64,000 nucleotides of DNA from Candidatus Methylomirabilia bacterium (GCA_041496385.1 JBGQEL010000010.1:7387-71386), one strand, 5' to 3'; counted from the stretch's first letter, positions 10,519 through 58,210 are shown. The notes: a model not told the origin generated them from the letters alone. A program made the numbers and translations.

Positions 10519-10525
10519 CGCGCGC

Positions 10526-13236: not shown

Positions 13237-13255
13237 GCCTCGTCTCCTCGGACGC

Positions 13256-25047: not shown

Positions 25048-25083
25048 GGACAACCTCCTCGCGGAGACTGGGAGTCGTCGGAT

Positions 25084-34378: not shown

Positions 34379-34379
<1 letters not shown>
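33804..34379 (-). CDS. ilvN: Acetolactate synthase small (regulatory) subunit
   Basis: [33 protein letters not shown] and ERELVLI. Confidence 0.95.
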
Positions 34380-36133
<1,754 letters not shown>

Positions 36134-38966: not shown

Positions 38967-39009
38967 TCTTTCTCACGCCTTCTCCGTTCGAAAGAAGCCT
39001 CGGTCCCTG

Positions 39010-39047
39010 AAAAGCGAAAGGGCCACGGGTCGCTTCACCCGTGGCCC
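39010..39047 (-). terminator. Intrinsic terminator of the attenuator
   Basis: 11-bp stem GGGCCACGGGT/ACCCGTGGCCC with a 6-nt loop, followed by TTTCGCTTTT. Confidence 0.85.
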
Positions 39048-39101
39048 CCAGAGTTTCCATCGCCACGGGCCCATCTCCTGCCCGTGGCATCCGATCTCGC
39101 G

Positions 39102-39220: not shown

Positions 39221-39985
39221 TCAAGATCGCTTGCCCCGTCCCCGCCCCCCCTCGTCGTCCCTGCCGAGCACGAGCTCCTCGACAGCCTCGAGGTGGTCGA
39301 CCATGGCCCGTCGCGCCTCACGCTCGTCGCGCGCGGCGATCGCGGCCAGGATGCGCTGGTGATCCTGGTGCGAACGCGTCGGCCGGCCGGGCGTGTTGAG
39401 CGATTCCTCCCGGCTCTGGGTGAGAAGGTCCATGACCGCGTGCGCGATCCGCGTGATCGCGCGGTTGTGCGCCGCCGCGCCGATGGCCGCGTGGAAGGCC
39501 GCGTCCTGGGTCAGGCCGGTCTTGCCGTCCGCGATCTCGCGCGCCTGCTCCGCGAGGATCCGCTCCATCTCCTGGATCTCCTCCCGGGTGGCGCGCGCCG
39601 CGGCGAGCTCCGCGAGCGCCGGCTCGAGGAGCCGGCGCGCCTCGAAGAGCTCGCCGATCGCCTCGCGCTGCGACGTCATCACCAGCGCGAGCGGCTCGAC
39701 CAGCGCCTCGATCGACACCTCGCGGACGAACGTCCCCTCCCCGGCGCGGATCTCGAGGAGCCCCAGACTTTCGAGCGCGCGCAGCGCCTCGCGGACCGAG
39801 GTGCGGCTCACGACGAACTTCTCGGCCAGGTCGCGCTCGGGCGGGAGCTGATCGCCGCTCTTGAGTCGCCCCTCGGCGATCATCTGCTTGACCTGGCGGA
39901 CGATCTCCTCGTAGATGCGCGTGGACTTGATCGGCGAGAGGCTCACGGTACGGTCGGGGCGCCGCGCGCGCCCACGGGCGGGCAT
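39221..39985 (-). CDS. GntR/FadR-family transcriptional regulator
   Basis: GDQLPPERDLAEKFVVSRTSVREAL wHTH plus FCD domain (DAAFH...AAHN, HQRIL); start may instead be GTG 39946. Confidence 0.93.
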   Translation of the reverse strand: MPARGRARRPDRTVSLSPIKSTRIYEEIVRQVKQMIAEGRLKSGDQLPPERDLAEKFVVSRTSVREALRALESLGLLEIRAGEGTFVREVSIEALVEPLALVMTSQREAIGELFEARRLLEPALAELAAARATREEIQEMERILAEQAREIADGKTGLTQDAAFHAAIGAAAHNRAITRIAHAVMDLLTQSREESLNTPGRPTRSHQDHQRILAAIAARDEREARRAMVDHLEAVEELVLGRDDEGGRGRGKRS

Positions 39986-40689
39986 CAGGGGCTCCTCCGC
40001 GCGTGCGCGTGGCCGTGGCGCCGCGCGCGCGCGAACCACCAGCCGAGCGCCGCGATGAGCGCGCCGATGGCCGGAGGCGTCACGCGGTGAAGCGTTCCCG
40101 CCGCGTCGCCGAGCCAGCGCGTCACGAGCCGGTCCTCCAGGACCATCTCGCCCGCGACGTAGCCCAGGAGCCCGCCCCCCAGCCAGACGATCCACGCGTA
40201 GCGATTCATCAGGTAGGCGAGAAGCCCCGCGCCCCAGACCACGATGGGCAGCGAGAGCCCGATCCCGAACATGACGAGGAGGAGATCGCCGTGCGCCGCC
40301 GCCGCGATCGCCAGCACGTTGTCCAGGCTCATCGTCACGTCGGCGACGATGATGATCCAGACGGCCTCCCAGAGGGACGTCCCGTGCCGCACGCCGCCGT
40401 CCGCGTCCGCGCCCGGTCGCACGAGCCGGGCGGCGATCCAGATGAGCAGCAGCCCGCCCGCGAGCTGGAGCAGCGGCACCCTGAGGAGCACGCTCACGAT
40501 CGCGACGAAGACGAGCCGCAGCACCACCGCGCCGACCGCACCCCAGATCTGCCCCAGCACGCGCTTGCGTTTGGGCAGCGCGCGCACGGCGAGCGCGATG
40601 ACCAGCGCGTTGTCGCCGGACAGGATGAGATTCAGGAAGCCAATCCCGAGGAGACGCACCCAGAACTCGGGGTCGAGGAGGACGGCCAT
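39985..40689 (-). CDS. TerC-family (YjbE-like) membrane protein
   Basis: NLILSGDNALVIALA and ADVTMSLDNVLAIA motifs. Confidence 0.9.
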   Translation of the reverse strand: MAVLLDPEFWVRLLGIGFLNLILSGDNALVIALAVRALPKRKRVLGQIWGAVGAVVLRLVFVAIVSVLLRVPLLQLAGGLLLIWIAARLVRPGADADGGVRHGTSLWEAVWIIIVADVTMSLDNVLAIAAAAHGDLLLVMFGIGLSLPIVVWGAGLLAYLMNRYAWIVWLGGGLLGYVAGEMVLEDRLVTRWLGDAAGTLHRVTPPAIGALIAALGWWFARARRHGHAHARRSP

Positions 40690-42194
40690 CAGGCGCCCGG
40701 CGCCGGCGCCCCGCGCATCCGGCGCCACCACGGCGTCAGCACGGGGAGGGCGAAGAAGAGAAGGGCGACGCCGGTGATCGCGCCCGCGATCGGTCGCGTG
40801 ACGAAGATCGCGACCGAGCCCTGCGACATGATGAGGCTCTGGCGGAGCGCGTTCTCGGCGAGGTCGCCCAGCACGAGGGCCAGGACCAGCGGCGCCAGCG
40901 GGTAGTCGAGCTTCTTGAACACGTAGCCCACCACGCCGAAGATCACCATGTACCAGATGTCGATCATGCTGTTGTGCACGGCGTAGGAGCCGACGGCGCA
41001 CACGACCACGATCACGGGCGTCAGGATCGCAAACGGGATGCGGAGGATCATGGCGAAGAACGGCACGAACGCCAGGACCATCAGCACGCCGATGATGTTC
41101 CCGGTGTACATGCTCGCGATGAGTCCCCAGACGAACTCGGGGCGTTCCTTGAAGAGGAGCGGCCCGGGCTGGAGACCCCAGATGATGAGCCCGCCGAGCA
41201 TCACGGCCGCGGTCGGTGAGCCCGGGATGCCCAGCGTGAGCATCGGCAGCATCGCGGCGACGCCCGCCGCGTGGGCGGCGGTCTCGGGCGCCACGACCCC
41301 CTCCAGCTCGCCCTGCCCGAACCGTTCCGGATGCCGTGAGAAGCGCTTGGCGAAGGCGTAGCTCATGAACGAGGCGGGCGTGGCGCCTCCCGGTTTGAAG
41401 CCCATCCAGAAGCCGATGAACGAGCCGCGCACGAACGTGCGCCAGTAGCGCGGCAGGATCTTCCAGGTCTCGAGGACGACCCCGAGCTTCATGCCCGTGG
41501 GCGCGCTGCGGAACGAGAGCCCCTCCTCGACCGACAGGAGGATCTCGCCGACCCCGAACAGGCCGATGACGGCGACGATGAAGTCGAAGCCTTTCATCAG
41601 ATCCACGAAGCCGAAGGTCATCCGGAGCTGGCCGGTGACGATGTCGAGCCCCACCGCGGCGAGGATGAAGCCGAGCAGGATCGAGACGAGCGACTTGAGC
41701 GGGTTACCGCCGCCGAGGCCGACGAAGCTCGAGAAGGTCAGGAGCTGGATCGCGAAGAACTCGGGCGGCCCGAACTTGAGGGCGATCTCCGCCAGGACCG
41801 GCGCGAAGAAGGTGATCAGGACGATCGAGAAGAAGGCGCCGACGAACGACGAGGTGAACGCGGCGGTCAGCGCCTGGCCCCCCTTCCCCTGGCGCGCCAG
41901 CGGGTAGCCGTCGAACGTCGTTGCGACCGACCACGGCTCACCGGGGATGTTGAAGAGGATAGACGTGATGGCCCCGCCGAAGAGCGCGCCCCAGTAGAGC
42001 GACGTCAGCAAGATGATCGCGGAGGTCGGCGGCATGGTGAACGTGAGCGGCAGCAGGATCGCGACACCGTTGGCCCCACCCAGCCCCGGCAGGACGCCGA
42101 TGATGGTGCCGAGGGTGATGCCGACGACGGCGACGAACAGGTTGTAGGGCGTGATCGCGACGTGGAAGCCGAGGACGAGGTTTTCGATGCCCAT
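40689..42194 (-). CDS. tctA: Tripartite tricarboxylate transporter, large subunit
   Basis: GVLPGLG, LFNIPGEP, DGYPLARQG, APETAAHA and LTLGIPGS; about 12 TM helices. Confidence 0.92.
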   Translation of the reverse strand: MGIENLVLGFHVAITPYNLFVAVVGITLGTIIGVLPGLGGANGVAILLPLTFTMPPTSAIILLTSLYWGALFGGAITSILFNIPGEPWSVATTFDGYPLARQGKGGQALTAAFTSSFVGAFFSIVLITFFAPVLAEIALKFGPPEFFAIQLLTFSSFVGLGGGNPLKSLVSILLGFILAAVGLDIVTGQLRMTFGFVDLMKGFDFIVAVIGLFGVGEILLSVEEGLSFRSAPTGMKLGVVLETWKILPRYWRTFVRGSFIGFWMGFKPGGATPASFMSYAFAKRFSRHPERFGQGELEGVVAPETAAHAAGVAAMLPMLTLGIPGSPTAAVMLGGLIIWGLQPGPLLFKERPEFVWGLIASMYTGNIIGVLMVLAFVPFFAMILRIPFAILTPVIVVVCAVGSYAVHNSMIDIWYMVIFGVVGYVFKKLDYPLAPLVLALVLGDLAENALRQSLIMSQGSVAIFVTRPIAGAITGVALLFFALPVLTPWWRRMRGAPAPGA

Positions 42195-42197
42195 CGT

Positions 42198-42659
42198 CTA
42201 GAAACCGAGCCACGCTTCGAGCGGACCCTTCGGCATCGGGACCAGAAACCACTTCTCGAAGACCAGGAACGTCGCGAGCGGGAACAGGATCGCCATCGCC
42301 AGGACGGCCAGCCACCCGTGGCGGCCGATCCAGCGCATGTAGAACCCCGTGTAGAGCGCGGCCGCGACGTAGAGCCCGAGCCACTGCGTGAGGACGACCA
42401 GCGCCACCGCCGGCCAGAGGACTTTCAGCACCGGCCCGAGCTGCGCCTGCGTCACGAAGGGCCGTCCGGCCGGGCCGCGCGCCGCCTGGAGGACGATGAC
42501 GGCGCAGGCCGCGATCATGAACACACCGAGCCAGAACGGGAAGAAGCCGCTCTGCGGGCCGTCGGTCCCCCAGCCGATGCCGAGCCGGGCCGAGTCGAAA
42601 ACGACGACGCCGGCCAGCAGCATCAGGAACGACGCGGTGACGAGATCCGCGATACGCAT
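42198..42659 (-). CDS. tctB: Tripartite tricarboxylate transporter, small subunit
   Basis: Four TM helices; GPQSGFFP and FEKWFLVPMPKG. Confidence 0.85.
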   Translation of the reverse strand: MRIADLVTASFLMLLAGVVVFDSARLGIGWGTDGPQSGFFPFWLGVFMIAACAVIVLQAARGPAGRPFVTQAQLGPVLKVLWPAVALVVLTQWLGLYVAAALYTGFYMRWIGRHGWLAVLAMAILFPLATFLVFEKWFLVPMPKGPLEAWLGF

Positions 42660-42672
42660 GGCGTGGGGCGCG

Positions 42673-43644
42673 CTACTTCTTGAGCAGCCCCCCCTTGGCC
42701 ATCAGCTCCTTGTGGAGCTTCTCGTTCTCCTCGACCCAGGCCACGTACTCGGCGCCCTCGGCGAACGCCGGCTTGAGCGCGCCCTCGGTCAGGTATTTCT
42801 GAAAGTCGGGCGTGTCGTAGACCTTCTTCAGCAGGGCGACGTACCAGTCCACGGCCTCCTTGGGCATGTTCGGAGGCCCGAACATGCCGCGCAGCATGAG
42901 GTAGTGGACGTCGACGCCCAGCGCCTCCTTGACCGTCGGGATGTCCTTCCACTCCGCGACGGGAATGCGCGCGGTGTCGAAGACCGCGAGCGGCCGGACC
43001 CGCCCGCCCTTCCAGTGGCTCGCGCACTCGATCGGGTTGTTCACGGTCGAGTCGACGTGCTTGCCCACGAGGTTCACGCACACCTCGCCGCCGCCCTTGA
43101 ACGGCACGTAGATGAACTTGAGGCCGAGCGCCTGCTCCAGCTGGATCGTGAGGATCTGATCCTCCTGCGCGGAGCCGGTGCCACCCATCTTCTTGCCCAA
43201 GGGCTTCTCCTTCACGGCGGCGATGTAGTCCTTGGCCGTCTTGTAGGGCATCTCGGCGTTCACCCAGAGGATGAACTGGTCGAGCGCCATGCGGGCGATC
43301 GGGCTGAGGTCGCGCCAGTTGAACGGAATGCCGGTATGCAGCGGGGTCGTGAACAGGTTCGAGAGGGTGATGATCATCGTGTGGGCGTCGCCCTTCCGGC
43401 CCTTGACGTCGAGGAAGCCCTCGGCACCGGCGCCGCCCGCTTTGTTCACCACGATGATCGGCCGGGGGGAGAGCTTGTGCTTCTCGGCGATGCCCGAGAT
43501 CAGGCGCGCCATCTGGTCGGCGCCGCCTCCCGTGCCGGCGGGTACGACGAGCTCGATGGGTTTGGTCGGCTCCCAGGCCGCGGCGGGCGCGCCCAGGGAC
43601 ACGATCAGGATCGCGATCAGCGCGAGTACGGTGATGAGCCTCAT
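42673..43644 (-). CDS. tctC: Tripartite tricarboxylate transporter substrate-binding protein (Bug/TctC)
   Basis: Signal peptide, WEPTKPIELVVPAGTGGGAD, VVNKAGGAG and VPFKGGG. Confidence 0.9.
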   Translation of the reverse strand: MRLITVLALIAILIVSLGAPAAAWEPTKPIELVVPAGTGGGADQMARLISGIAEKHKLSPRPIIVVNKAGGAGAEGFLDVKGRKGDAHTMIITLSNLFTTPLHTGIPFNWRDLSPIARMALDQFILWVNAEMPYKTAKDYIAAVKEKPLGKKMGGTGSAQEDQILTIQLEQALGLKFIYVPFKGGGEVCVNLVGKHVDSTVNNPIECASHWKGGRVRPLAVFDTARIPVAEWKDIPTVKEALGVDVHYLMLRGMFGPPNMPKEAVDWYVALLKKVYDTPDFQKYLTEGALKPAFAEGAEYVAWVEENEKLHKELMAKGGLLKK

Positions 43645-43751
43645 CGCTCGACTCCTTGCGGACCGGCGCCGCGGTTGTCTCCCGTGACGGTCGAATCTCG
43701 ATGGTGCGTGACGCGTCGGTGTCGGTTGGCTCCTCGGGCGGGTTATGAACG

Positions 43752-43787
43752 GCGGGCCGGGCCCCGGGACGCCGGGGCCCGGCCCGC
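43752..43787. repeat. Perfect 16-bp all-GC inverted repeat with a 4-nt loop
   Basis: GCGGGCCGGGCCCCGG-GACG-CCGGGGCCCGGCCCGC in the oxidoreductase-to-tctC spacer. Confidence 0.85.
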
Positions 43788-43835
43788 GCCGCGGTTACGC
43801 GACGTCGAACCGGCCGGTCGCGTCCATCGGGTGCG

Positions 43836-44867
43836 CTACTTGGTCTCGAGCGCGGCCTTGGTCGCGTCGAGCCGCCGGAACGGGACGACCGCAGGGATTT
43901 CCCACTGCTCCCACATCTCGTCCACCTTCTTCTGGAAGTAGTGAAGATCCTCTTCGAGGAAGTGGGCGAAGCGGCCCTGTTTCAGGAGGTACTCGCGCAC
44001 CGGCTTGCGCGCGCGCCCCTCGACGATCGCCTTGGTCTTGCCGTAGTACTTCACCTGGCCGTCCTCCACCTCGTAGAGGGGGAAGATCCCGGTCTCGATC
44101 GCCAGCTCGCCGAGCTCGTGGGAGAGCATCGGGTCGTAGTCCCAGCCCTTCGGGCACGGGTCGAGCGAGTGGATGAAGGTCGGGCCGCCGATCGAGAGGG
44201 CGCGGCGGACCTTGTTCATCATCTCGACCGCGTAGGACGGGCAGACGGTCGCGACGTACCGGCACTCCGTGTGGCCCGCCGCCAGCATGCCCGCCGTGTT
44301 CTTCTTCCAGCGCGTGTGGATGAGGCGCTTGACCGTGCCCGGCGGGCTGAACGTCGTGTTGGCGCCGTAGGGCGTCGAGCCCGAGAGCTGGATGTCGGTG
44401 TTCGCGTACGACTCGTTGTCGTAGAGCAGGATGAGGCTGTTGTACTCCTTGTGGGTCAGCGTCGCGGAGATCGCGCCGAGCCCCATGTCCGCCCCGCCGC
44501 CGTCGCCGCAGAACGCTATAACATTGATCGGCTCGGACTTCATCTTGCCCTTCTTCATGAGCGCCTTGAGGCCCGCGGCGGTGCCGAGCGCGGCGGAGCC
44601 CGAGGAGCCGAGCTGCGTGTGCATCCACGGCACCACCCACGGCGTTGTGTAATAGGTCGTGTTGGCGACGTACATGCAGCCCGTCGAGCCCAGCACGATC
44701 GTGCGGGGGCCGGACGCCTTCACCATGAGCTTCATGACGAGGGCGGACTCGCAGCCCTGGCAGGTCCGGTGGCCCGACGTGAAGTACTCCTCGATCGTGA
44801 CCTTCTTGACGCCCCGGAACGGCTCCAGGATCTGCGTGGCGTTGGTGAACGTCGTGGTCTCAGCCAT
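43836..44867 (-). CDS. 2-oxoacid:ferredoxin oxidoreductase beta subunit, oxalate oxidoreductase-like
   Basis: GHRTCQGC, TGCMYVANT, GDGG...YDNESYANT (TPP-binding) and PCPKGW. Confidence 0.88.
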   Translation of the reverse strand: MAETTTFTNATQILEPFRGVKKVTIEEYFTSGHRTCQGCESALVMKLMVKASGPRTIVLGSTGCMYVANTTYYTTPWVVPWMHTQLGSSGSAALGTAAGLKALMKKGKMKSEPINVIAFCGDGGGADMGLGAISATLTHKEYNSLILLYDNESYANTDIQLSGSTPYGANTTFSPPGTVKRLIHTRWKKNTAGMLAAGHTECRYVATVCPSYAVEMMNKVRRALSIGGPTFIHSLDPCPKGWDYDPMLSHELGELAIETGIFPLYEVEDGQVKYYGKTKAIVEGRARKPVREYLLKQGRFAHFLEEDLHYFQKKVDEMWEQWEIPAVVPFRRLDATKAALETK

Positions 44868-44879
44868 GGCCGTGCTCTC

Positions 44880-46109
44880 CTATTCTCGAACGCCGAGCCA
44901 GTGCGTCTTCGAGTCCGACTTGCCCGACTGCGCGGCACCGTAGCACATGTCGGTCGCCTTGTTGACGTCCTCCAGCGTGACCTCGCGCCCGCCGAGGCCG
45001 CAGATGAACGAGAGGAGCGGCGGGCGCCGCGCGGCGTTGTACATGGCCGCGCGGATCTCGTTGGCGACCACGCCCGAGGCGAACGGCGAGCCGAACGAGT
45101 AGTTCCGGTCGATGACACCGATCGCCTGCGCCTTGGACAGGGCCGCCACCAGCCGGTCGGTCGGGAACGGCCGGAACCAGCGGAGCCGCACGAGGCCGAC
45201 CTTCTTGCCCTTGGCGCGCATCTCGCGGATCGCGACCTTGATGGGGAGCGAGATGGTCCCCATCCCGACGAGGATCACCTCCGCGTCGTCCGTCATGTAC
45301 TCCTCGAACCAGGGGTTCTCGGGCCCGCGGCCGAACACGCGCCGGAAATCGGCGTACGCTTCCTCGATGACCGTGTAGGCACGCTTCATCGCCTCGTCGT
45401 TCTGGCGGCGGATCTCGATGACCCAGTCCTCGTTCGCCTGCGGCGCGACGGTGATCGGGTTGTCCGGATGGAGCAGCAGATCGCCCCGGTTGTATCGCGG
45501 CAGGAAGGCGTCCACCTTCGCCTTGGGCGGCACCATCGTGAGCGCCTGCGAGTGCGTCAGGAACGCGCCGTCGGCCGAGATCGCGATTGGCAGGAAGATC
45601 CGCCGATCCTCGGCCACGCGGTAGGCGATCAGCGTCGTGTCGAGCGCCTCCTGCGAGGTATCGATCCAGCAGAGGAGCCAGCCGAGGTCGCGGACGACCA
45701 GCGCGTCGTTGTGCTCGACGCCGAACGCCCCGGGATCGTCGAGCGCGCGGTTGCCGACGAGCGCGACCATCGGCACCCGCAGCGGCGGCGTCACGACCAG
45801 GCACTCCATCGCGTACATCCAGCCCACGCCCGACGAGCCGCAGAAGACGCGGGCGCCCACCGTCGAGGCGTGCTTGACGATCTCGAACTGGCTGTGCTCG
45901 CCCTCCGCCACGATGTACTCGGCGACCAGATTGCCGTTGGCGATCTTCTTCGCGATCGCCTGCATCACCGTGTCGTACGGCCGGATCGGGTACGCCGTCA
46001 CCACGTCGATGTCGGCCAGGGTCAGGGCCTCGGCCACGGCCTCGCTGCCCGAGATCAGGAGCTCTTTGTCTTCGCTCGCGGCCGGCGCCGCCTTCGTCAC
46101 CACCGCCAT
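44880..46109 (-). CDS. 2-oxoacid:ferredoxin oxidoreductase alpha subunit, oxalate oxidoreductase-like
   Basis: YPIRP in place of the PFOR YPITP motif, EGEH, NRALDDPGAFG and FRPFP. Confidence 0.88.
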   Translation of the reverse strand: MAVVTKAAPAASEDKELLISGSEAVAEALTLADIDVVTAYPIRPYDTVMQAIAKKIANGNLVAEYIVAEGEHSQFEIVKHASTVGARVFCGSSGVGWMYAMECLVVTPPLRVPMVALVGNRALDDPGAFGVEHNDALVVRDLGWLLCWIDTSQEALDTTLIAYRVAEDRRIFLPIAISADGAFLTHSQALTMVPPKAKVDAFLPRYNRGDLLLHPDNPITVAPQANEDWVIEIRRQNDEAMKRAYTVIEEAYADFRRVFGRGPENPWFEEYMTDDAEVILVGMGTISLPIKVAIREMRAKGKKVGLVRLRWFRPFPTDRLVAALSKAQAIGVIDRNYSFGSPFASGVVANEIRAAMYNAARRPPLLSFICGLGGREVTLEDVNKATDMCYGAAQSGKSDSKTHWLGVRE

Positions 46110-46124
46110 CGTCGTCCTCCAGCC

Positions 46125-47333
46125 CTACGAGGTCTTGTGCTGCGCGTTCTCGCCCGGGATGCCCGCCGTGATCTCGACACCGCCCGTGTCCAGCTCCGTC
46201 TTCAGCTCTTCCTCGTACTGGCCGCGGAACCGGAAGCCGTGCGAGCGGACCGTCGCCTGCTTGTCGTCGATCTTTCCGGTCATCCAGGTCCGGTACGCGT
46301 CCTTGTCCTTCCGCCACATCTCCCACTGGCTGGCGTTGTCGTCGAACACCGACTCGTTCACCATCGTGATGCACTTCTCGACGGGACAGACCGCCTCGCA
46401 GACGCCGCAGCCGCAGCACGAGTCCATGTTGGCGTCATAGGTGCCGTCGGGCATCACGTCGAAGCAGGAGTCGGGGCACTGGATCCAGCAGAGCGTGCAC
46501 TTGACGCAGGTGTCGAAGTTGATCACCGGGCGCATCGTGCGCGTCGTGTACTTCTTGAAGTACGGGTTGCGCTCCGGGACGTAGCCCTTCCCCGCCTCCT
46601 TCGGCTTGCCGAGCGGGATCGCCGGGATCGTCACACCCTCACGCATCTCCCACCACTTGGGCATCTCGAACGAGAACGGCACCTCGTCGTTGCCCTCGGT
46701 GAGCTTCACCTCGCGGGTCTCGATCCGGTCGTAGGCCTTCTTCGCGGACTCGACCTTGATGTCGGAGCCCCACTCCATCTCGCGGATCGCCTGACTGACC
46801 CCGTCGAGGCTCAGGAACGACGGGGCGATCCTGGCGAGCGCGCCCAGGATGCGCACCTCGGTGTGGTCCTCCTTGTAGACCCAGAGGCCCGAGAACGAGG
46901 CCTTGGCGCGGATCAGCGAGAGCTTGTACGGAGCATCCTTCTTGTGGATGTCCTCGAGCAGGTCGTCGAACCTCTGCAGCGAGGTCATCAGCACCGTGCC
47001 GTTCGGCACGGTGAGCCGGTTGATCGGCTGGAGCCCGTACCAGGCCCACGACTCGACGCCCTTGGAGAGCGTGTCGTCCACGCAGATCGTGACGTCCACG
47101 TGCTTGGGCTCGTAGCGGGCCATGTTCTGCTCGAGCTCTTCCTTGCTGTCCGCGACGATCGCGAAGTCCTTCGCCGGGATGCCGTTGCGCTGCGGGCTGT
47201 CGCCGTAGCGGCCGAACGCGATGCCCCAGCGGCCGGACTTGCGCGCCGACAGCACGATGCCGCGCGCGATGCGGGCGGCGAGGTTCTTCTGGAAGATGCC
47301 GCGATAGACGATCTCGCAGATCAGGGCTGCCAT
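46125..47333 (-). CDS. Fused gamma-delta subunit (divergent gamma domain plus 2x[4Fe-4S] ferredoxin), OorD-like
   Basis: CVKCTLCWIQCP and CCGCGVCEAVCP; no GxGGQG loop in the N-terminal domain. Confidence 0.85.
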   Translation of the reverse strand: MAALICEIVYRGIFQKNLAARIARGIVLSARKSGRWGIAFGRYGDSPQRNGIPAKDFAIVADSKEELEQNMARYEPKHVDVTICVDDTLSKGVESWAWYGLQPINRLTVPNGTVLMTSLQRFDDLLEDIHKKDAPYKLSLIRAKASFSGLWVYKEDHTEVRILGALARIAPSFLSLDGVSQAIREMEWGSDIKVESAKKAYDRIETREVKLTEGNDEVPFSFEMPKWWEMREGVTIPAIPLGKPKEAGKGYVPERNPYFKKYTTRTMRPVINFDTCVKCTLCWIQCPDSCFDVMPDGTYDANMDSCCGCGVCEAVCPVEKCITMVNESVFDDNASQWEMWRKDKDAYRTWMTGKIDDKQATVRSHGFRFRGQYEEELKTELDTGGVEITAGIPGENAQHKTS

Positions 47334-47376
47334 GCGCGTCTCCTCACCGGGGCGCCGGCCCCCGGGACTTGGCTAC

Positions 47377-47427
47377 TGGTCGAATGGTCTGACCGGAGAA
47401 TACCCCGGGCGGGGACTGAGCTGTCAA
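47377..47427 (-). promoter_or_regulatory. Promoter and FadR-type operator upstream of the oxidoreductase operon
   Basis: TTGACA (47427-47422), 19 nt, TATTCT (47402-47397); TGGTC-gaa-TGGTCTGACC at 47377-47394. Confidence 0.6.
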
Positions 47428-48215
47428 GGGGCCCTCGACAGGAACCCCTCGAGAGCCCGCGTAAAGGCCTCAGGCTGCTCGATATTCGACAGATGTGACG
47501 CGGACTTGATTATCGTCAGCTCAGATCCGGCGATATGCTCGTGGATCACCCGAGCGGCCGCGACCGGCGTCCCCAGATCATCCTCGCCGACGATGACGAG
47601 CGTCGGGATCTTGATGACGCCGAGCCGATCCGTGAGGTCGAGCTTCGAGATCGCGTGACAGCAGCCGGCGTAGCCCGCGGGGTTCGTTCCTCGGATCATC
47701 GCGGCCACGCGCTGGACGACCTCCGGACGCTTCTCCCTGAAGGGCGGCGTGAACCAGCGGCCCAGCGTGGGCTCGACGAGCGGCTCCATGCCCTGGGTCT
47801 CCGCGGTGCGGATCCGGTCATCCCACGCCGCGCGCATCTCGGGAGGCACGCGGCTGGACGTGTCGCAGAGGGCGAGGCTTGCGAAGAGGCCGGGCGCCTT
47901 GAGCGCGAGGGTCTGGCCGATCATGCCGCCCATCGAGAGCCCGACCCAGTGCGTCTTCGCGATCCCGAGCGCCCCGAGGAGCGCGCGGGCGTCCTCCGCG
48001 AGCTGGTCGAGCGTGTACGCCCCCCGGGGCGCGTCGGTCGCGCCGTGGCCCCGCGTCTCGTACTGGAGCACCCGGTACCGCCTCGCCAGCGCCGTGAGCT
48101 GCGGCTCCCACATGGCGAGCGTGGTCGCAAGCGAATGACTCAGCGTGACCACCGGGGCCCCGGCGGGGCCCTCGAGCGAGTAGTTGACGGAGATCCCGTT
48201 GACCGTGACCTTCAT
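47424..48215 (-). CDS. Alpha/beta hydrolase, 3-oxoadipate enol-lactonase-like
   Basis: SHSLAT, RGHG, GLSMGG nucleophile elbow and SHLSNIEQP. Confidence 0.85.
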   Translation of the reverse strand: MKVTVNGISVNYSLEGPAGAPVVTLSHSLATTLAMWEPQLTALARRYRVLQYETRGHGATDAPRGAYTLDQLAEDARALLGALGIAKTHWVGLSMGGMIGQTLALKAPGLFASLALCDTSSRVPPEMRAAWDDRIRTAETQGMEPLVEPTLGRWFTPPFREKRPEVVQRVAAMIRGTNPAGYAGCCHAISKLDLTDRLGVIKIPTLVIVGEDDLGTPVAAARVIHEHIAGSELTIIKSASHLSNIEQPEAFTRALEGFLSRAP

Positions 48216-48847
48216 GACGCTCCTCCTTGGGTCCGGTGCGCGTCGATCGTCCACTGGACCGCGTCGGCCGCCCGGTGGTCGTTCGGCCGCGCGCGGCGGC
48301 GCAGCTCGTCCACGATCTTCGCGCGCGCGTCCGGCGTGCGGTTCTGCGCGAGCTTGAATTTCGGACGACGGGCCCGGATGTCGAGCCGGACCGCCGCGAT
48401 GTGGGCGATCGCGCCCCGATAGAGCGGGTCGTCCGGGGTCACCGGCCGGAAGCCCCCCTCCGGCTGGTACCGGCCGAGCAGCTTCGTCTGCTGCGCGGCC
48501 AGCGCCCCCGCGTCGTCGGACACCGTGGCCTGGCAGTCGAAGATGACCGTCCGGTGATACGCCGTCGCCATGACCGCGTTCTCCGGATGCACCCAGTACG
48601 AGGGGATAACCGCGAGCACTTCGTCGACCTCGAAGAGGCAGCGCGGCCGCGCCCGGAGGTCTTCGATCTGCTCGTCCTTGCGGACCAGGTGAATCTCGAA
48701 TGCGTCACCGTCGTACACGAAGGGGTAGAGCCCGATGTGGGGCGTCCCCCCGGCGTCGGCGGTGACGAGACGCCCCATCTCCTGGGAGCGGACGAACCGG
48801 TCCACCTCGTCCCGCGGCACGTCCGCGTAGTAGTCGTGGAAGATCAC
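48212..48847 (-). CDS. FMN-binding split-barrel protein, PaiB-like
   Basis: PHIGLYPF, IPSYW...ATAY and KFKLAQNR pattern; GTG start overlaps the pdxT stop. Confidence 0.7.
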   Translation of the reverse strand: MIFHDYYADVPRDEVDRFVRSQEMGRLVTADAGGTPHIGLYPFVYDGDAFEIHLVRKDEQIEDLRARPRCLFEVDEVLAVIPSYWVHPENAVMATAYHRTVIFDCQATVSDDAGALAAQQTKLLGRYQPEGGFRPVTPDDPLYRGAIAHIAAVRLDIRARRPKFKLAQNRTPDARAKIVDELRRRARPNDHRAADAVQWTIDAHRTQGGAS

Positions 48848-49449
48848 GCGCGCGCTCCTTTGGCCGCTCGCCGGACCATGTCGCGAAAGTAGCGGTGCAC
48901 GGCCTGCTCGCCCGTCACCTCCGGGTGGAAGGTCGCCACGAGCACCCCGCCCTGCCGGGCCATGACGGGATCGTCGCCCTGACGCGCGAGCACGTCGACG
49001 CCCGCGCCGACCCGCCGGATGCGCGGGGCGCGGATGAACATCATGTCGATGGGTGTCGGCCGCCCGTCGAGCATCGCCGTCCCCCGGCTCTCGAACGACT
49101 CCCGCTGGCGCCCGTAGGCGTTTCGCTCGACGGTGACGTCGATCAGGCCGAGAGAGAACTGCCGGGGGTTCTCGACCTCCCGCGCGAGCACGATGAGACC
49201 CGCGCAGGTGCCGAAGATGGGTCTGCCCTCGGCGTGGAACTTCTCGATCGCGGGGACGAATCCCCACTCGTCCATGAGCTTGAGCAGCGTCGTCGACTCG
49301 CCACCCGGAATGAGCAGGCCGTCCACGTCGGCCAGCTCGGCCGGCTTGCGGACCTCGACCGCCGCGACGCCGCACGTCGCGAGCGCCGCGGCGTGGAGGC
49401 CGAAATCGCCCTGAAGGGCGAGCACGCCGATTTTCACGTTTTCGGTCAT
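48844..49449 (-). CDS. pdxT: PLP synthase glutaminase subunit
   Basis: GVLALQGDF, PGGEST, GTCAG, RNAYGRQ, FIRAP and FHPE. Confidence 0.95.
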   Translation of the reverse strand: MTENVKIGVLALQGDFGLHAAALATCGVAAVEVRKPAELADVDGLLIPGGESTTLLKLMDEWGFVPAIEKFHAEGRPIFGTCAGLIVLAREVENPRQFSLGLIDVTVERNAYGRQRESFESRGTAMLDGRPTPIDMMFIRAPRIRRVGAGVDVLARQGDDPVMARQGGVLVATFHPEVTGEQAVHRYFRDMVRRAAKGARA

Positions 49450-49505
49450 TTCACCGCTCACCTCGGACGGCGGGGCCGCAGCCCCGCGACGTCCTGCGGC
49501 TCGCA

Positions 49506-50402
49506 CTACCAGCCCCGGGTCTGGAGCAGGTCCTTCTCCTCGAGCTTCGAGGTCTCGATCCCGGGCATCGCCTCGCCCAGCTCCTCCGAGACGCGCGCGA
49601 GGACGTCGGCATCCTTGAAGTGGGTCGTCGCCTGGACGATCGCCTTGGCGCGCTTGGCCGGATCGCTCGACTTGAAGATGCCCGAACCGACGAACACCGA
49701 CTCGGCGCCGAGCTGCATCATGAGCGCGGCGTCGGCCGGCGTCGCGATGCCACCCGCCGAGAAGTTCGGTACCGGGAGCTTGCCGGTCTTCGCCACCCAG
49801 CGCACGAGCTCGTAGGGCGCGCCGAGGGTCTTCGCCTCGGTCATGAGCTCCTCGGGCGAGAGCAGCGTCAGCCGCCGCATCCCGGACACGAGCGCCCGCA
49901 TGTGGCGCACGGCCTCGACGATGTTGCCCGAGCCGGCCTCGCCCTTCGTGCGGATCATCGCCGCGCCCTCGCCCACACGGCGGAGCGCCTCGCCGAGGTC
50001 GCGCGCGCCGCACACGAACGGCACCCGGAAGGCGAACTTGTCGATGTGAAAATGCTCATCCGCGGGCGTCAGCACCTCCGACTCGTCGATGAAGTCCACG
50101 CCGAGGGCCTCGAGGATCTGCGCCTCGACGAAGTGGCCGATGCGCGCCTTGGCCATCACGGGGATCGTCACCGTCTTCTGGATCTCCCGGATCTTCCTCA
50201 CCGGCGACATCCGCGCGACGCCGCCCTCCTTGCGGATGTCCGCGGGCACACGCTCGAGCGCCATCACGGACACCGCGCCCGCGTCCTCGGCGATCTTCGC
50301 CTGCTCGGCGTTGGTGACGTCCATGATGACGCCGCCCTTCAGCATCTCCGCGAGGCCGATGTGCTTCTTGTCCGCGATGCGCAGCCCGTTCACGTCCATC
50401 AT
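49506..50402 (-). CDS. pdxS: PLP synthase lyase subunit
   Basis: [37 protein letters not shown] and [11 protein letters not shown]. Confidence 0.97.
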
Positions 50403-50446
50403 GTGGATCTCCTTTGTCTTGGCCGGTCGGCCAGTCGATTCCTACC

Positions 50447-51976
50447 CTAGACCAGCGGAACCGTCGCGCGTGCCGCCCGCTCGCGCTCCGGGACCCGTCC
50501 GCGCGCCGCCCGGATCGTCTCCGCCAAACGCTTGACCCCCTCGTCGATCCGCGCCGCCGCCACCGACGAGAACGAGAGCCGCAGGGTCCTCTCGCCGCCC
50601 CCGTCCACGAAGAACGCGGCGCCCGGCGTGAACGCGACGCCGCGCTCGCCCGCGGCGGGCAGCAGCGCGCCGGCGTCGAGCCCGGGCGGCAGCGTCACGA
50701 GGAGCGAGAACCCGCCCTGCGGCTCGGTCCACGTGACCTCGGCCGGCATCCGTCGACGGAGCGCCGCCAGCAGGAGCGCGCGTCGCCGCGCGTACTCGCG
50801 GGCGACCCGCGTCACGTGACGGTCCAGGAGCTTGCGCTCGCAGAACCGGTAGACCGCGGCCTGGAGCAGCGCGCTCGTGTGCAGGTCGGCGAGCTGCTTG
50901 GCCGCGAGGAGCCGGTCGAGGACCGGCCGCGGGCCGACGAGCCAGCCGAGCCGCAGCCCGGGAAAGAGGATCTTCGAGAACGTCCCGATGTAGATCACGA
51001 CCCCGTCCCGGTCGAGCGCCTTGAGCGGGACCGCCGGCCGCTCGCCGTAGTAGAGGCTGCCGTCGAAGCCGTCTTCGACCACCGGCACCTGATGGCGCGC
51101 GGCGACGTCCAGGAGGCGCCGCGCCGTCTCGAGCGTGAGGGAGAGTCCGGTCGGGTTGTGCGCGCTGGGCTGGCAGTAGAAGAGCTTCGGCGCGTGACGC
51201 TCGAGGAGCCGCTCGAAGGCGTCCACCCGCGGGCCCGACGTGTCCCAGGGCACCGCCAGCAGCTGGGCGCCGAAGGAACGGAAGACCTGCAGCGCGCGGG
51301 GGTAGGTCGGATCCTCGATCGCGACGGCATCTCCCGGGTCGAGCAGCGTGCGGGCGATCAGGTCGAAGCCCTGCTGGGAGCCGTTGACGATGATGATGTC
51401 GTCGGGCCGCGCCTCGAGCCCGAATCTCAGGAGATAGGTCGAGAGATACTGCCGGAGCGGCGGATAACCGCCGGCGGGGTAGTACTGCAGGAGCGCGGCG
51501 CCGTCCTCGCGGATCACGTCGTTCAGCACGCGGCGGAAGGCGTCGGTCGGGAAGAGCCCGCTGTCGGGCATGCCACCCGCGAACGAGATGACCGCGGGAT
51601 TGGCTGCCGCCGTGCTCGCGAGGGCCCGCGTCCGGTCCTCCTCGGCGACCACGATCTGCGCGCTCCGCGAGAACAGGCCCGGCCAGTTGAGCGGCACCTG
51701 GGACGGGACCTGAGCCTCGGGCGCCGCCTGGGTCCCGGGCGACTCGGCGACGAAGGTCCCCTGGCCCACGTGGGCCCGGGCCCAGCCCGCGGCCACGAGC
51801 TCCTCGTAGGCCTGCGCGACGGTGGCGCGGTTGACGCCGAGCTGCTGCGCGAGGTCGCGCGTGGCCGGCAGCTTCATCCCGGGCGTCAGGAGCCGCTCGC
51901 GGATGAGGCGCTCCAGGTACGCCTGGATCTGGCGCGGCAGCGCGACGGGCTTCTCGCGGTCGAGCGGGATGTGCAC
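50447..51976 (-). CDS. MocR/GabR-family PLP-dependent regulator (PdxR-like)
   Basis: wHTH (KLPATRDLAQQLGVNRATV) plus aminotransferase-like domain (GTFSKILFPGLRLG); SD AAGGAG before GTG 51976; adjacent to pdxST. Confidence 0.9.
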   Translation of the reverse strand: MHIPLDREKPVALPRQIQAYLERLIRERLLTPGMKLPATRDLAQQLGVNRATVAQAYEELVAAGWARAHVGQGTFVAESPGTQAAPEAQVPSQVPLNWPGLFSRSAQIVVAEEDRTRALASTAAANPAVISFAGGMPDSGLFPTDAFRRVLNDVIREDGAALLQYYPAGGYPPLRQYLSTYLLRFGLEARPDDIIIVNGSQQGFDLIARTLLDPGDAVAIEDPTYPRALQVFRSFGAQLLAVPWDTSGPRVDAFERLLERHAPKLFYCQPSAHNPTGLSLTLETARRLLDVAARHQVPVVEDGFDGSLYYGERPAVPLKALDRDGVVIYIGTFSKILFPGLRLGWLVGPRPVLDRLLAAKQLADLHTSALLQAAVYRFCERKLLDRHVTRVAREYARRRALLLAALRRRMPAEVTWTEPQGGFSLLVTLPPGLDAGALLPAAGERGVAFTPGAAFFVDGGGERTLRLSFSSVAAARIDEGVKRLAETIRAARGRVPERERAARATVPLV

Positions 51977-52088
51977 CGTGGTCTCCTTACAGGGCCATTC
52001 TCCGAGTATTCCTGGCGACGTCAAGGGCCAATTGGCCTGCTCGGTACCAGGCCACGCTATAATCCTCCGCACCGGGAGGAGGCCCCTC

Positions 52089-52268
52089 ATGTCCCTGGGC
52101 GAGGCGCCGATCAGGCAGGCCGTGAAGTGGATCGAGGACCGGCTGCGCGACGACCCGGCGGCCGATCGCCTCAGGCTCGTCGACGAGGCGTCGCGGCAAT
52201 TCGACCTGACGCCGCTCGATGAGGACTTCCTCCTCCGGCACCTGGCCGAGCGCCGCAAGGACGGATGA
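52089..52268 (+). CDS. Small hypothetical protein (59 aa)
   Basis: TATAAT at 52058-52063, SD GGAGGAGG, ATG 52089; stop overlaps the next start. Confidence 0.8.
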   Translation: MSLGEAPIRQAVKWIEDRLRDDPAADRLRLVDEASRQFDLTPLDEDFLLRHLAERRKDG

Positions 52269-53041
52269 GCGAGGCGCAGACCCGCCGCGTCCAGGCGCAA
52301 TTCGGCGCGACCCCGCAGGCCTACGTCGCGAGCGTCGGTCACGCCGGCGGCGCCGATCTCGAAACGCTGCTGGCCTGGGGACGCGCCCGCCGCCCGGCGC
52401 GGGTCCTCGACGTCGCCACCGGGGGCGGTCACACGGCCCTCGCCTTCGCCGGACTCCCGGCGCGCGTCGTCGCGTTCGACCTGACGGAGGCGATGCTCCG
52501 CGCCGCGCGCGACTTCGTCGGCGGCCGCGGCGCGACGGGCGTGAGCTTCGTCGCGGGCGACGTCGAGGCGCTCCCCCTCCGCGAGGGCGCCTTCGACCTC
52601 GTGACCTGCCGGATCGCCGCCCACCACTTCGCCGACGTCGCCGCCGCCGTCCGCCAGATCCAGCGCGTGCTGCGCCCCGGTGGCTCCTTCCTCGTGCAGG
52701 ACATCCTCGGTCACGACGATCCCGAGGCGAGCGCCTTCATCACCGAGGTCGAGCGACGCCGCGACCCCTCCCATGTCCGCGCCTACCGCGCGACGGAGTG
52801 GAAGGCCTTCCTGAAGGCCGCCGGCATGACGGTGATGGCCGAGGCGATCGTGAGCAAGGTCCGTCCGTGGGGCGACTGGACGGCCCGGATGGGGATGAGC
52901 GTCGAGGCGCGGCGTGAGCTCGAGGCCTTCGTGCGCGGCGCGCCCGAGCCCTGCCGCCGCGCCTTCGACGTGAGACTCGCGGGCGACGCGGTCGAATCGT
53001 TCGCCGACCGCATGATCCTGCTCCGCGCCGACCGCGACTAG
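52265..53041 (+). CDS. Class I SAM-dependent methyltransferase
   Basis: VLDVATGGG, GDVEALP, FDLVTCRIAAHHF and RVLRPGG. Confidence 0.9.
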   Translation: MSEAQTRRVQAQFGATPQAYVASVGHAGGADLETLLAWGRARRPARVLDVATGGGHTALAFAGLPARVVAFDLTEAMLRAARDFVGGRGATGVSFVAGDVEALPLREGAFDLVTCRIAAHHFADVAAAVRQIQRVLRPGGSFLVQDILGHDDPEASAFITEVERRRDPSHVRAYRATEWKAFLKAAGMTVMAEAIVSKVRPWGDWTARMGMSVEARRELEAFVRGAPEPCRRAFDVRLAGDAVESFADRMILLRADRD

Positions 53042-57359: not shown

Positions 57360-58210
57360 AAGGCGCGATCCCCGGCAAGGTCGTCGGCCTCGAGGTCGGC
57401 GCCGTCAGCCAGACGCTGGACGCGCGCTGGCTCATGGCCTACGCGGCGGGGCTGGGCGAGACCGACCCGCGCTACTACGACACGGAGGCGCCCGGCGGGC
57501 CGCTGGCCCACCCGATGTTCGCCGCGTGCTACGAGTGGCCCGTGGCGCTCTCGCTGCGCGCGAAGACGATCAAGCCCGAGCTGCTGCCCCTCGGCGTCCA
57601 GACGAGCCACCACCTCGTCATCCACCGGCAGCCCGCGGCGAGTGATCGCCTGCTCACCCGCGGGCAGGTCGTCACGGTCAAGCCGGTCCGCGCGGGCACC
57701 CTCGTCGTCACGCGCTATTCCAGCGTGGACCGCAACGGCCGGCCCGTCACGACGACCGACTATGGCTCGATCTTCCGCCGCGTGACCACGGAGGGCGAGG
57801 CGAGCGCCGCCGTGCCGCCGCTGCCACGTCCGGAGCCGCCGGCGGGCGACGAGGTGCGCTGGATCGCGACGGTCGCCGTCGGCCTGCAGGCCGCCCACGT
57901 CTACTCCGAGTGCGCGCGCATCTGGAACCCGATCCACACCGACATCGCCGTCGCCCGCGCCGCGGGGCTTCCCGGGCTGATCCTGCACGGCACCGCGACC
58001 ATCGCGCTCGCGGTCTCGCAGGTGATCCAGCGCGACCTGGCCGGCGACCCGACGCGGGTCGCCGAGCTCACCGCGAGGCTCGCGGGCATGGTCTCGATGC
58101 CGTCGAGCCTCGTCGTTCGCGGCCGCGCGCGCGCCGGGAACCGGGTCGCCTTCGACGTCATGAACGAGCGTGGCGAGCCGGTGCTGAGCGACGGCGTCAT
58201 CCGCGCATGA
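57356..58210 (+). CDS. Tandem hot-dog MaoC-family dehydratase
   Basis: N-terminal MaoC-like domain (YAAGLGE...AHPMF) and C-terminal WNPIHTD...GLILHG motif. Confidence 0.82.
   Translation: MKGAIPGKVVGLEVGAVSQTLDARWLMAYAAGLGETDPRYYDTEAPGGPLAHPMFAACYEWPVALSLRAKTIKPELLPLGVQTSHHLVIHRQPAASDRLLTRGQVVTVKPVRAGTLVVTRYSSVDRNGRPVTTTDYGSIFRRVTTEGEASAAVPPLPRPEPPAGDEVRWIATVAVGLQAAHVYSECARIWNPIHTDIAVARAAGLPGLILHGTATIALAVSQVIQRDLAGDPTRVAELTARLAGMVSMPSSLVVRGRARAGNRVAFDVMNERGEPVLSDGVIRA

Follow-up and report, generated by a model that had tools for sequence, protein, structure and literature searches.

What is imported and oxidized by the products of an eight-gene cluster in Candidatus Methylomirabilia bacterium (GCA_041496385.1 JBGQEL010000010.1:7387-71386)? 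The cluster lies at nt 39221-47427 of the 64,000-nt stretch analysed here (hereafter the window; G+C content about 70%) and encodes an enzyme similar to oxalate oxidoreductase (OOR), a tripartite tricarboxylate transporter (TTT), a TerC protein, and a GntR-family regulator. Comparison with homologous genome and metagenome loci, which were retrieved for this purpose and are numbered with the prefix L, makes it likely that these genes form an operon, inducible by oxalate, through which oxalate is taken up with high affinity and oxidized completely; the strong support for this reading comes from comparative genomics and not from biochemistry. In the mechanism proposed, TctC would capture oxalate in the periplasm, possibly as a Ca2+ or Mn2+ chelate, and TctBA would import it by ion-coupled symport; the three-subunit thiamine pyrophosphate (TPP) enzyme would oxidize it to 2 CO2 without coenzyme A (CoA), electrons passing through three [4Fe-4S] clusters to ferredoxin; and the GntR/FCD protein would repress the promoter until oxalate accumulates. 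Two further steps are suggested more weakly, namely that TerC might export the divalent cation entering with, or released from, oxalate, and that a hairpin after the beta gene might set the enzyme transcripts above those of the transporter.

Organization of the gene cluster

The eight co-oriented genes described in an earlier note on this DNA were all found on the minus strand, and each product scored above the Pfam gathering score for its expected family:

46125-47333, minus strand: delta, OOR-like subunit, 402 aa
44880-46109, minus strand: alpha, OOR-like subunit, 409 aa
43836-44867, minus strand: beta, OOR-like subunit, 343 aa
42673-43644, minus strand: tctC, 323 aa
42198-42659, minus strand: tctB, 153 aa
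40689-42194, minus strand: tctA, 501 aa
39985-40689, minus strand: terC, 234 aa
39221-39985, minus strand: gntR, 254 aa

The intergenic gaps from delta to tctA were 15, 12, 191, 13, and 3 nt and were followed by two one-base overlaps. Both overlaps read TGATG, as had been described: the last base of the tctA stop codon TGA (40691-40689) is also the first of the terC ATG, and the terC stop codon (39987-39985) and the gntR ATG have an A in common in the same way. A ribosome binding site, GAGGAGA, precedes delta at 47345-47339, and ppdK is located downstream of gntR. Independent JGI gene calls gave the same eight lengths on two metagenome contigs encoding an identical alpha protein, and the window DNA itself was present in sediment metagenomes (DNA runs). 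The closest alpha homologues, 88-93% identical, were labelled Candidatus Rokubacteria.

Two transporter types following the enzyme genes

Loci of the enzyme were scanned in one genome per species; at least 567 were found, and the best 80 were kept. Thirteen of these 80 belonged to Rokubacteria and most of the others to Acidobacteriota, the remaining hosts including Armatimonadota, Dormibacterota, Anaeromyxobacteraceae, Bacillota, and SAR202. The order pdxS ... delta-alpha-beta-tctCBA-(terC)-gntR-ppdK was kept in 11 of the 12 Rokubacteria loci with room for it, terC being present in eight of the 11, and the order from delta to ppdK recurred in about 20 metagenome contigs. This recurrence in genomes and metagenome contigs indicates that the arrangement is not due to chance, and the linkage of the enzyme (marked by the motif YPIRP, see below) with tctABC and terC, which the earlier note had proposed to examine across genomes, is conserved in Rokubacteria, with terC lacking from some of the loci.

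Outside Rokubacteria, the core was gntR-delta-alpha-beta, gntR immediately preceding delta in 51 of 57 genomes. In the 56 such loci with room after beta, the next gene encoded an OxlT-family protein of the major facilitator superfamily (MFS) in 43, whereas tctCBA followed in four and neither in nine. Seven of eight MFS neighbours scanned scored 460-533 bits on the oxalate/formate antiporter equivalog model TIGR04259 (cutoff 335). In the single neighbour aligned to OxlT of Oxalobacter formigenes (that of L035), the positions of Arg272 and Lys355, which we take to be the oxalate-binding residues, were kept; the lactate transporter SfMCT has Cys at the position of Lys355. No tctA was found together with an OxlT-type gene in any of the 80 genome loci, tctCBA occupying the OxlT position in Rokubacteria and four other lineages, and OxlT gave no tblastn match in the 64-kb window.

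This displacement of transporters at a fixed position is the main argument that the enzyme substrate is imported oxalate and that TctCBA would be the importer here. Because OxlT equivalogs follow orthologous enzyme genes, OxlT of O. formigenes (PDB 8HPJ/8HPK), which fills the same genomic slot as tctCBA, would have its functional counterpart in TctCBA, although the latter, a secondary transporter that depends on a binding protein, belongs to an unrelated family. An enzyme of the OOR type makes no formate, so formate antiport would not be the mode of transport, whether by OxlT or by TctCBA. One Acidobacteriota locus, L013, carries after beta, on the opposite strand (12377-13744, minus strand), a formamidase/acetamidase-family gene in the OxlT slot, a neighbour that may tie the cluster to oxamate or some other amide.

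The TctCBA transporter and its relatives

TctC, TctB, and TctA scored 119 (PF03401), 63 (PF07331), and 514 bits (PF01970), respectively, all above the cutoff. They are, in the same order, a periplasmic binding protein with a signal peptide, a small membrane subunit, and a large membrane subunit, and the adjacency of the three homologues places the system in the TTT family (TC 2.A.80). TctC proteins encoded next to the enzyme in different phyla were 42-65% identical to that of the window and had the distinctive motifs GTGSxQED, TVNNPxE, and MLRGxF in common.

In the reverse direction, metagenomes were scanned with motif patterns drawn from the TctC alignment, which yielded 80 loci, and those with at least 1.5 kb upstream and at least 3 kb downstream of tctCBA were regarded as well flanked. 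Among the 22 well-flanked loci of this TctC orthogroup, 12 had an enzyme of the window type (subclade B, see below), three had a Moorella-type enzyme with YPIRP and ADRxxDPPGDFG, and five had oxc and/or frc. The oxc products scored 989-1025 bits on TIGR03254 (cutoff 739) and the frc products 564-709 bits on TIGR03253 (cutoff 504); they were encoded 1-2.5 kb from tctC genes whose products were 57-59% identical to the window TctC. The loci concerned were as follows:

L153, 12342-15435
L156, 12286-15311
L161, 13538-16896
L140, 4514-7471
L160, 7906-8997
L110, 6605-9751

More than one module was present in some loci. OxlT, gntR, a Moorella-type enzyme, tctCBA, and two terC copies stand together in L116, and L160 has tctCBA, OxlT, a gntR-like gene, and oxc, the OxlT-type gene lying between tctA and oxc. 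One TctC orthogroup was thus linked to each known bacterial oxalate module examined, and import of oxalate by TctABC in place of OxlT, as the earlier note had suggested, finds support both in the exchange at the slot and in these neighbours. The pathway of formyl-CoA transferase (Frc) and oxalyl-CoA decarboxylase (Oxc) acts on the same substrate and is linked to the same TctC orthogroup in other lineages, but the proposed OOR route would need no CoA and would yield 2 CO2 and low-potential electrons, not formate.

For the window, the note had stated that frc and oxc are missing, and none of frc, oxc, and oxlT was found among the larger called open reading frames (ORFs) scanned. The sole Oxc-like match, a TPP enzyme encoded at 34379-36133, was IlvB (824 bits on TIGR00118), encoded beside ilvC, leuA, and leuB, and a 404-aa ORF considered as a candidate for Frc (2915-4129) was MoeA.

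An acidic Gln-Glu-Asp (QED) insertion in pincer loop 2 of TctC was invariant and specific to the orthogroup, the nearest solved TctC proteins lacking it; these structures (111-124 bits) are unliganded or hold unrelated ligands and are therefore uninformative on the ligand. The citrate transporters TctCBA/BctCBA of Salmonella, Bordetella, and Corynebacterium have the same three-component architecture and Pfam families, and the carboxylate is bound by their binding proteins along with divalent cations (PMC5812351; bioRxiv 10.64898/2026.07.27.740893). Ca2+, Mn2+, and Fe2+ enhance the binding of citrate to Salmonella TctC, citrate uptake by the C. glutamicum TTT takes place with Ca2+ or Mg2+ present (PMC5812351), and BctC holds Zn-citrate via waters bound to acidic residues. 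The window orthogroup differs from these in the three motifs of its own. The TTT ligands that a 2018 review (PMC5812351) lists as experimentally characterised do not include oxalate, a literature search found no paper linking TctC with oxalate genes, and a 2010 genome paper offered only the speculation that Bug proteins bind oxalate, among other acids. Judged by its gene neighbourhoods, TctC is a candidate receptor for oxalate or metal-oxalate, and TctCBA, a bona fide TTT with a proposed new ligand, would be the first candidate oxalate TTT.

In L095 (1080-6050) and L119 (413-4882), tctCBA-terC come first and are followed by a more distant gntR (47-48% identical), after which L095 has a distant delta-like gene (44% identical). 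This arrangement looks like a second, rearranged oxalate-type locus.

Similarity of the enzyme to Moorella oxalate oxidoreductase

The closest structural matches of the three subunits were those of Moorella thermoacetica OOR (MtOOR): alpha matched 5c4i_A with 329 bits, versus 215 bits for the best pyruvate:ferredoxin oxidoreductase (PFOR), beta matched 5c4i_C with 294 bits, versus 200 bits for PFOR beta, and delta matched 5c4i_B with 62 bits over residues 10-330. Models of OOR (NF045790, NF045791, and NF045792) were also the top NCBIfam matches for all three subunits. Alpha consists of POR_N and PFOR_II domains (Pfam); beta, with Pfam TPP_enzyme_C, binds TPP and one [4Fe-4S] cluster, the cysteines aligned with those of MtOOR being kept.

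The earlier label oorD for the first gene is justified insofar as its product is an OOR-like delta subunit, in which, as in Moorella delta, a divergent gamma-like domain III is fused to a two-cluster ferredoxin domain. The latter, 2x[4Fe-4S], was recognized by Pfam Fer4_21 at residues 270-324 and has two CxxCxxCxxxCP motifs; a C-terminal extension of about 70 aa completes the protein. This tail, residues 331-402 approximately (46125-46340, minus strand), runs some 70 residues past the end of Moorella OOR delta, and since delta homologues of other phyla are about 380-400 aa long, it may be conserved. Pfam POR domain III (PF01558) gave no match in any of the three subunits, and its absence from delta fits CoA independence.

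According to a summary of work on MtOOR in PMC5020499, a secondary source, Arg31, Arg109, and Asp116 are key residues of that enzyme: Arg31, which replaces the Thr of YPITP, and Arg109 are the substrate-binding arginines, and Asp116 lies on the switch or plug loop of a "bait-and-switch" mechanism. YPIRP of the window alpha, including Arg31, aligns with YPIRP of MtOOR (5C4I alignment), and Arg109 is kept as well, GNR being aligned to ADR109 in an invariant column. A search for alpha homologues covered 1.84 billion representatives; in a motif tally among 150 representatives at 50% clustering, YPIRP was restricted to closer relatives (at least 37% identity), while nearly all others with a recognisable motif had YPITP.

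The YPIRP enzymes split into two subclades, one of the Moorella type with the switch loop ADRTLDPPGDFG, and one of the window type (subclade B) with the loop GNRALDDPGAFG (GNRALDDPGAFGVEHNDA in the window alpha). The loop of subclade B was invariant in the best 80 of the at least 567 genomic loci, with overall identities of 64-90% and YPIRP either unchanged or FPIRP, and we read it as a constrained active-site variant. Position 113 is Pro in Moorella OOR and Asp in the window enzyme, so that the Asp may have been relocated from position 116 to 113.

MtOOR (PDB 5C4I/5EXD/5EXE) and the window enzyme thus have in common three subunits with a fused domain III and ferredoxin domain in delta, YPIRP, Arg109, and the cysteine motifs for three [4Fe-4S] clusters. 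They differ in the switch loop, in the very divergent N-terminal domain of delta and its extension, and in their settings: MtOOR is from an acetogen, whereas the hosts of the window type are soil and sediment Rokubacteria, Acidobacteriota, and others, in which the enzyme genes adjoin TTT or OxlT transporter genes and a GntR regulator gene. The gene order delta-alpha-beta is presumably the same in Moorella. The enzyme would accordingly represent a sister clade of Moorella OOR, MtOOR-like except at Asp116 and in falling below the equivalog cutoffs (see below), and the oxalate genes in its neighbourhoods lead us to propose CoA-independent oxidation of oxalate to 2 CO2 with reduction of ferredoxin.

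In some Acidobacteria, the subclade-B enzyme has a YPIRP paralogue, encoded a few kb away, whose switch loop is of the Moorella type:

L023, 2717-7687, minus strand
L025, 6364-11264, plus strand
L057, 1415-3771, plus strand
L061, 3-6062, minus strand

The paralogue is accompanied in L023, L025, and L061 by a 610-aa subunit with Fer4_20 and Pyr_redox_2 domains (GltD/NfnB-like) and a protein of 215-217 aa; it may represent an OOR linked to NAD(P). Nearby, L061 and L023 also encode a CDC48-like AAA ATPase.

Predicted promoter, candidate operator, and regulator

Upstream of, within, and downstream of the cluster, the following elements were located:

47422-47427, minus strand: -35-like hexamer TTGACA, read directly and found at the equivalent place in 12 of 13 Rokubacteria loci
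47397-47402, minus strand: -10-like hexamer TATTCT, 19 nt after the -35-like hexamer, read directly
47376-47394, minus strand: candidate GntR operator, with the palindrome GGTCAGACCA (47394-47385) and a CGACCA half-site (47381-47376)
43752-43787, minus strand: between beta and tctC, a 16-bp G+C hairpin lacking a U tract, from folding of the spacer
39008-39049, minus strand: hairpin resembling a terminator, with a T run, in the gntR/ppdK spacer about 170 nt from gntR, from a consensus scan and the sequence; function predicted

The promoter, which appears to be sigma-70-like, was missed by the consensus scan because of its 19-nt spacer and was recognized on visual inspection and by comparison with aligned upstream regions of orthologous loci, in which TATAGT-like, TAGTAT, or TATATG sequences correspond to the -10 hexamer. 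The first base of TTGACA, 47427, is also the right-hand limit of the interval delimited in the earlier note. Directly after the -10 hexamer, TGGTC-N-GACCA, with GACCA or TACC after a further 3 nt, was present in 12 of 13 Rokubacteria loci, and the same palindrome was located upstream of gntR in L019, L024, L036, L043, and L048 and upstream of delta in L059, against a background rate of 0.05 per 280 nt. Within the 64-kb window, GGTCNGACCA was unique. The candidate GntR target can be written as TGGTCAGACCA and the fuller operator stretch as TGGTCAGACCATTCGACCA. This FadR-type palindrome overlaps the likely transcription start, and TGGT-N3-ACCA is what we take to be the operator type of FadR, PdhR, and LldR-type regulators. 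GGT-N3-ACC was not found upstream of gntR in Acidobacteria, whose regulators are 39-46% identical to that of the window and probably use another site.

The regulator scored 81 bits on Pfam GntR (PF00392) and 97 bits on FCD (PF07729). Its earlier designation as FadR holds at the level of the subfamily (GntR plus FCD) and not as orthology, FadR proper being rejected with 40 bits on NF003444 (cutoff 189) and 36 bits on TIGR02812 (cutoff 249). The best NCBIfam models were NanR, LldR, PdhR, and GlcC, regulators that sense small carboxylic acids; all stayed below the cutoff, so that the protein is an orthologue of none of them. It resembles PdhR/LldR/GlcC-type regulators in its winged-helix GntR domain and FCD domain and differs from them in that gntR of Rokubacteria lies at the 3' end of the operon that it probably controls, not upstream of it. 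The self-regulation claimed earlier is supported by the palindrome in its two settings, after the -10 hexamer in Rokubacteria and upstream of gntR in other phyla; the operon is probably repressed by the product of its own last gene, for which oxalate would be the effector.

Hairpins and transcript levels

A strong hairpin directly after beta was present in nearly all TTT-type loci, its sequence not being conserved, and in L008 and L010 it was followed by a T-rich run. The beta/tctC hairpin may be an attenuator or an mRNA-stabilising element. At the other end of the cluster, a promoter-like site, TTGACA-18-TATGCT (39224-39195, minus strand), is located between gntR and the terminator-like hairpin, which follows the site by about 150 nt, with the start of ppdK another 110 nt on; nt 39224-39008 (minus strand) might be transcribed as a short RNA or serve as a regulatory leader. 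The whole window gave no Rfam match at the gathering score, and hence neither a riboswitch for terC nor a leader RNA for ppdK was detected.

Metatranscriptome contigs from soil and rhizosphere, 200-500 nt long, were mapped at a threshold of at least 85% identity. The RNA runs contained only 6-12% of the 31-mers of alpha and thus derive from related strains. Depths in runs X25 and X31 were 194-1060 for the enzyme genes, 112-300 for tctC, 139-350 for ilvC, 207-521 for pdxS, 23-158 for ppdK, and 5-34 for tctBA, terC, and gntR, the ratios between genes being unreliable and the near-zero depth of the spacers, whose sequence is not conserved, carrying no information. These depths show that relatives of the enzyme genes and tctC undergo transcription in situ, at depths similar to those of ilvC and pdxS.

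TerC and possible metal handling

The terC product scored 148 bits on Pfam TerC and 204.7 bits on the YjbE subfamily model TIGR03717 (cutoff 134.8), and both of its DN(A/V)L(V/A)IA repeats are intact. Its gene has no intergenic space before the start; with its ATG overlapping the tctA stop and its stop overlapping the gntR ATG, there is no room for a promoter of its own. TerC proteins export Mn2+ (PMC10550928), and the window protein is like the exporters of this family (Bacillus subtilis MeeF/MeeY and Escherichia coli Alx) in exceeding the YjbE-subfamily cutoff. It differs in two respects: the gene lacks the yybP-ykoY Mn2+ riboswitch that is common in the family (the TIGR03717 model name contains "R_switched"), and its translation is coupled to that of a carboxylate transporter gene.

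Metagenome TTT loci with at least 1.2 kb after tctA were tallied for terC, which was present in 11 of 16 with the subclade-B enzyme (OOR-B), three of six with an OOR-A-like enzyme, one of six with oxc/frc, and one of 11 with no detected enzyme. All 67 non-Rokubacteria genome loci, mostly of the OxlT type, lacked it. Two copies in tandem between tctA and gntR were observed in L093, L120, L126, L129, L147, L149, and L158. The recurrence of TerC with TTT-type oxalate loci of three enzyme types, and never with those of the OxlT type, lends the idea of metal handling some support, short of proof. Taken with Mn2+ export by TerC proteins, the metal-citrate ligands of other TTT systems, and the acidic QED insertion of TctC, it makes uptake of a metal-oxalate complex with return of the metal by TerC plausible, if somewhat doubtful.

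Alternative interpretations

The observations that weigh against an oxalate operon are brought together here with the alternatives that they favour. The most serious of these, unlikely on balance yet deserving real weight, is that the cluster is not one unit, TerC being a passenger for housekeeping metals and the transporter genes being transcribed separately from a start after the hairpin. The stable 16-bp hairpin between beta and tctC leaves the predicted co-transcription in doubt; its structure is kept in TTT-type loci, and the T-rich run follows it in two of them. Moreover, terC is missing from L003, L007, and L009, as well as from four non-Rokubacteria TTT loci, and TerC is scored as absent or displaced in L024, L030, and L036 along with the former three, and metatranscriptome depth falls from the enzyme genes to tctBA, terC, and gntR. 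With an 85% mapping threshold, however, this fall could also arise because the sequences of tctB and terC are less conserved. The start/stop overlaps of terC exclude a promoter of its own, the location of the regulator gene at the far end of the cluster from the promoter upstream of delta that it would control favours read-through, and TerC accompanies oxalate-type TTT loci of three enzyme types, with tandem duplicates in seven contigs.

It is improbable that the enzyme acts on another small 2-oxoacid (glyoxylate, oxamate, mesoxalate, or oxaloacetate) imported by the TTT, oxalate being an ancestral or side substrate. Such a shift would suit a switch loop that is unlike that of Moorella OOR and invariant in its own form. 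Asp116 of MtOOR alpha is replaced by Ala (GAFG versus GDFG), and this Ala was invariant in all 80 subclade-B genomes; under this alternative the change alters the chemistry, whereas in the preferred oxalate reading it means that the second decarboxylation must be assisted differently. The subunits also scored below the NCBIfam OOR equivalog cutoffs (alpha, 371 versus 500 bits; beta, 340 versus 590; delta, 78 versus 230), and the occurrence of both loop types side by side in the four Acidobacteria loci listed above suggests non-redundant roles, the two enzymes perhaps not being equivalent. However, the Acidobacteria paralogue has the 610-aa NAD(P)-type subunit, so that the difference may concern the electron acceptor rather than the substrate. 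Among the neighbours, the formamidase-family gene adjoins the enzyme in L013 and GlcF adjoins the TTT genes in L154; two well-flanked loci of the TctC orthogroup (L089 and L102) were without an oxalate gene. Set against these are the OxlT equivalog directly after the subclade-B enzyme in 43 of 56 loci, with the basic residues for oxalate kept in the one aligned, the retention of Arg31 and Arg109, and the linkage of the TctC orthogroup to oxc/frc and to Moorella-type OOR as well. Because the metagenome loci had been retrieved by two TctC motifs, conservation of those two is circular, a limit that does not extend to the oxalate genes beside them; the scan patterns did not contain TVNNPxE, MLRGxF, or the Asp of QED, yet these were invariant and were also kept in the genome loci retrieved via alpha.

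That the public annotation is right, the enzyme being a pyruvate (or 2-oxoisovalerate) ferredoxin oxidoreductase tied to ppdK and central metabolism with the TTT importing an unrelated carboxylate, can be practically dismissed: homologues are labelled "pyruvate ferredoxin oxidoreductase" in public sources, ppdK is kept downstream in Rokubacteria, and PorA/PorB were the second-best models, but these models scored below their cutoffs and, for both alpha and beta, clearly below those of OOR, YPIRP replaces the YPITP of PFOR-type enzymes (PMC5020499), no CoA-binding domain III is recognisable, OxlT genes are the neighbours in other phyla, and the linkage to ppdK is limited to Rokubacteria and close relatives.

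Implications for oxalate turnover

The oxalate-carbonate pathway is driven by the oxidation of oxalate. In environmental surveys, frc, oxc, and oxlT serve as marker genes; oxalotrophy reviews do not use OOR for this purpose, a 2024 review of environmental oxalotrophy makes no mention of oxalate oxidoreductase, and the main Rokubacteria papers make none of an OOR-like enzyme. Most likely, therefore, the subclade-B OOR clade has been overlooked, and with it an oxalate route that frc/oxc gene surveys would miss.

A broader proposal combines two parts and is correspondingly tentative: subclade B would be a widespread, unrecognised OOR of abundant soil phyla (Acidobacteriota, Rokubacteria, Dormibacterota, and others, with at least 567 genomic loci), and Rokubacteria would have a metal-oxalate TTT with return of the metal by TerC, a cycle of chelate import and metal recycling suited to mining calcium or manganese oxalate. 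If this were true, estimates of oxalate turnover based on frc, oxc, and oxlT would miss a major sink. Should the oxalate reading of the operon hold, CoA-independent, ferredoxin-linked oxidation of oxalate would be common in two uncultured soil lineages that rank among the most abundant, under the annotation "pyruvate ferredoxin oxidoreductase". The TTT family would gain a small-dicarboxylate specificity with recognisable motifs, helping annotation of the large "Bug"/TctC expansions, and TerC a new physiological context, metal handling in chelate catabolism. The natural Asp116-to-Ala variant of the loop would offer a direct test of the bait-and-switch mechanism of Moorella OOR.

Other loci in the window

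Upstream of the operon, and separated from it by a 90-nt spacer, is a cluster for pyridoxal phosphate at 47424-52774 (minus strand), encoding pdxR (MocR-type), pdxS, pdxT, a PNPOx-like FMN-binding protein, and a PcaD-like hydrolase that exceeds the equivalog cutoff for PcaD (3-oxoadipate enol-lactonase). The linkage of pdxS to the operon, kept across Rokubacteria, is probably plain synteny.

A formate dehydrogenase-N cluster lies about 15-20 kb from the operon, with no evident link to it:

25779-26552, minus strand: FdhD
21949-25053, minus strand: formate dehydrogenase-N alpha subunit, as two ORFs
21167-21946, minus strand: FdnH-like 4Fe-4S subunit
20350-21174, minus strand: NrfD-like membrane subunit
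19499-20113, minus strand: FdhE

The two ORFs of the alpha subunit are split by an in-frame TGA at 24471-24469 (context QARV-TGA-HSAT), which, standing at the expected active-site position, is probably a selenocysteine codon and not a break.

A 536-aa ORF at 4161-5771 had no family match. It is followed at 5773-11116 (minus strand) by an alternative-complex-III or Qrc-like set with ActD and a multihaem cytochrome c7/c3-like protein, in which a molybdopterin-like QrcB/ActB part and a 4Fe-4S QrcC part are fused in a protein of 965 aa. On the other side of the operon, at 55476-59229 (plus strand), a RACo-type corrinoid activase (2Fe-2S and ASKHA) adjoins a URO-D-family protein, a pairing that suggests corrinoid-dependent methyl transfer.

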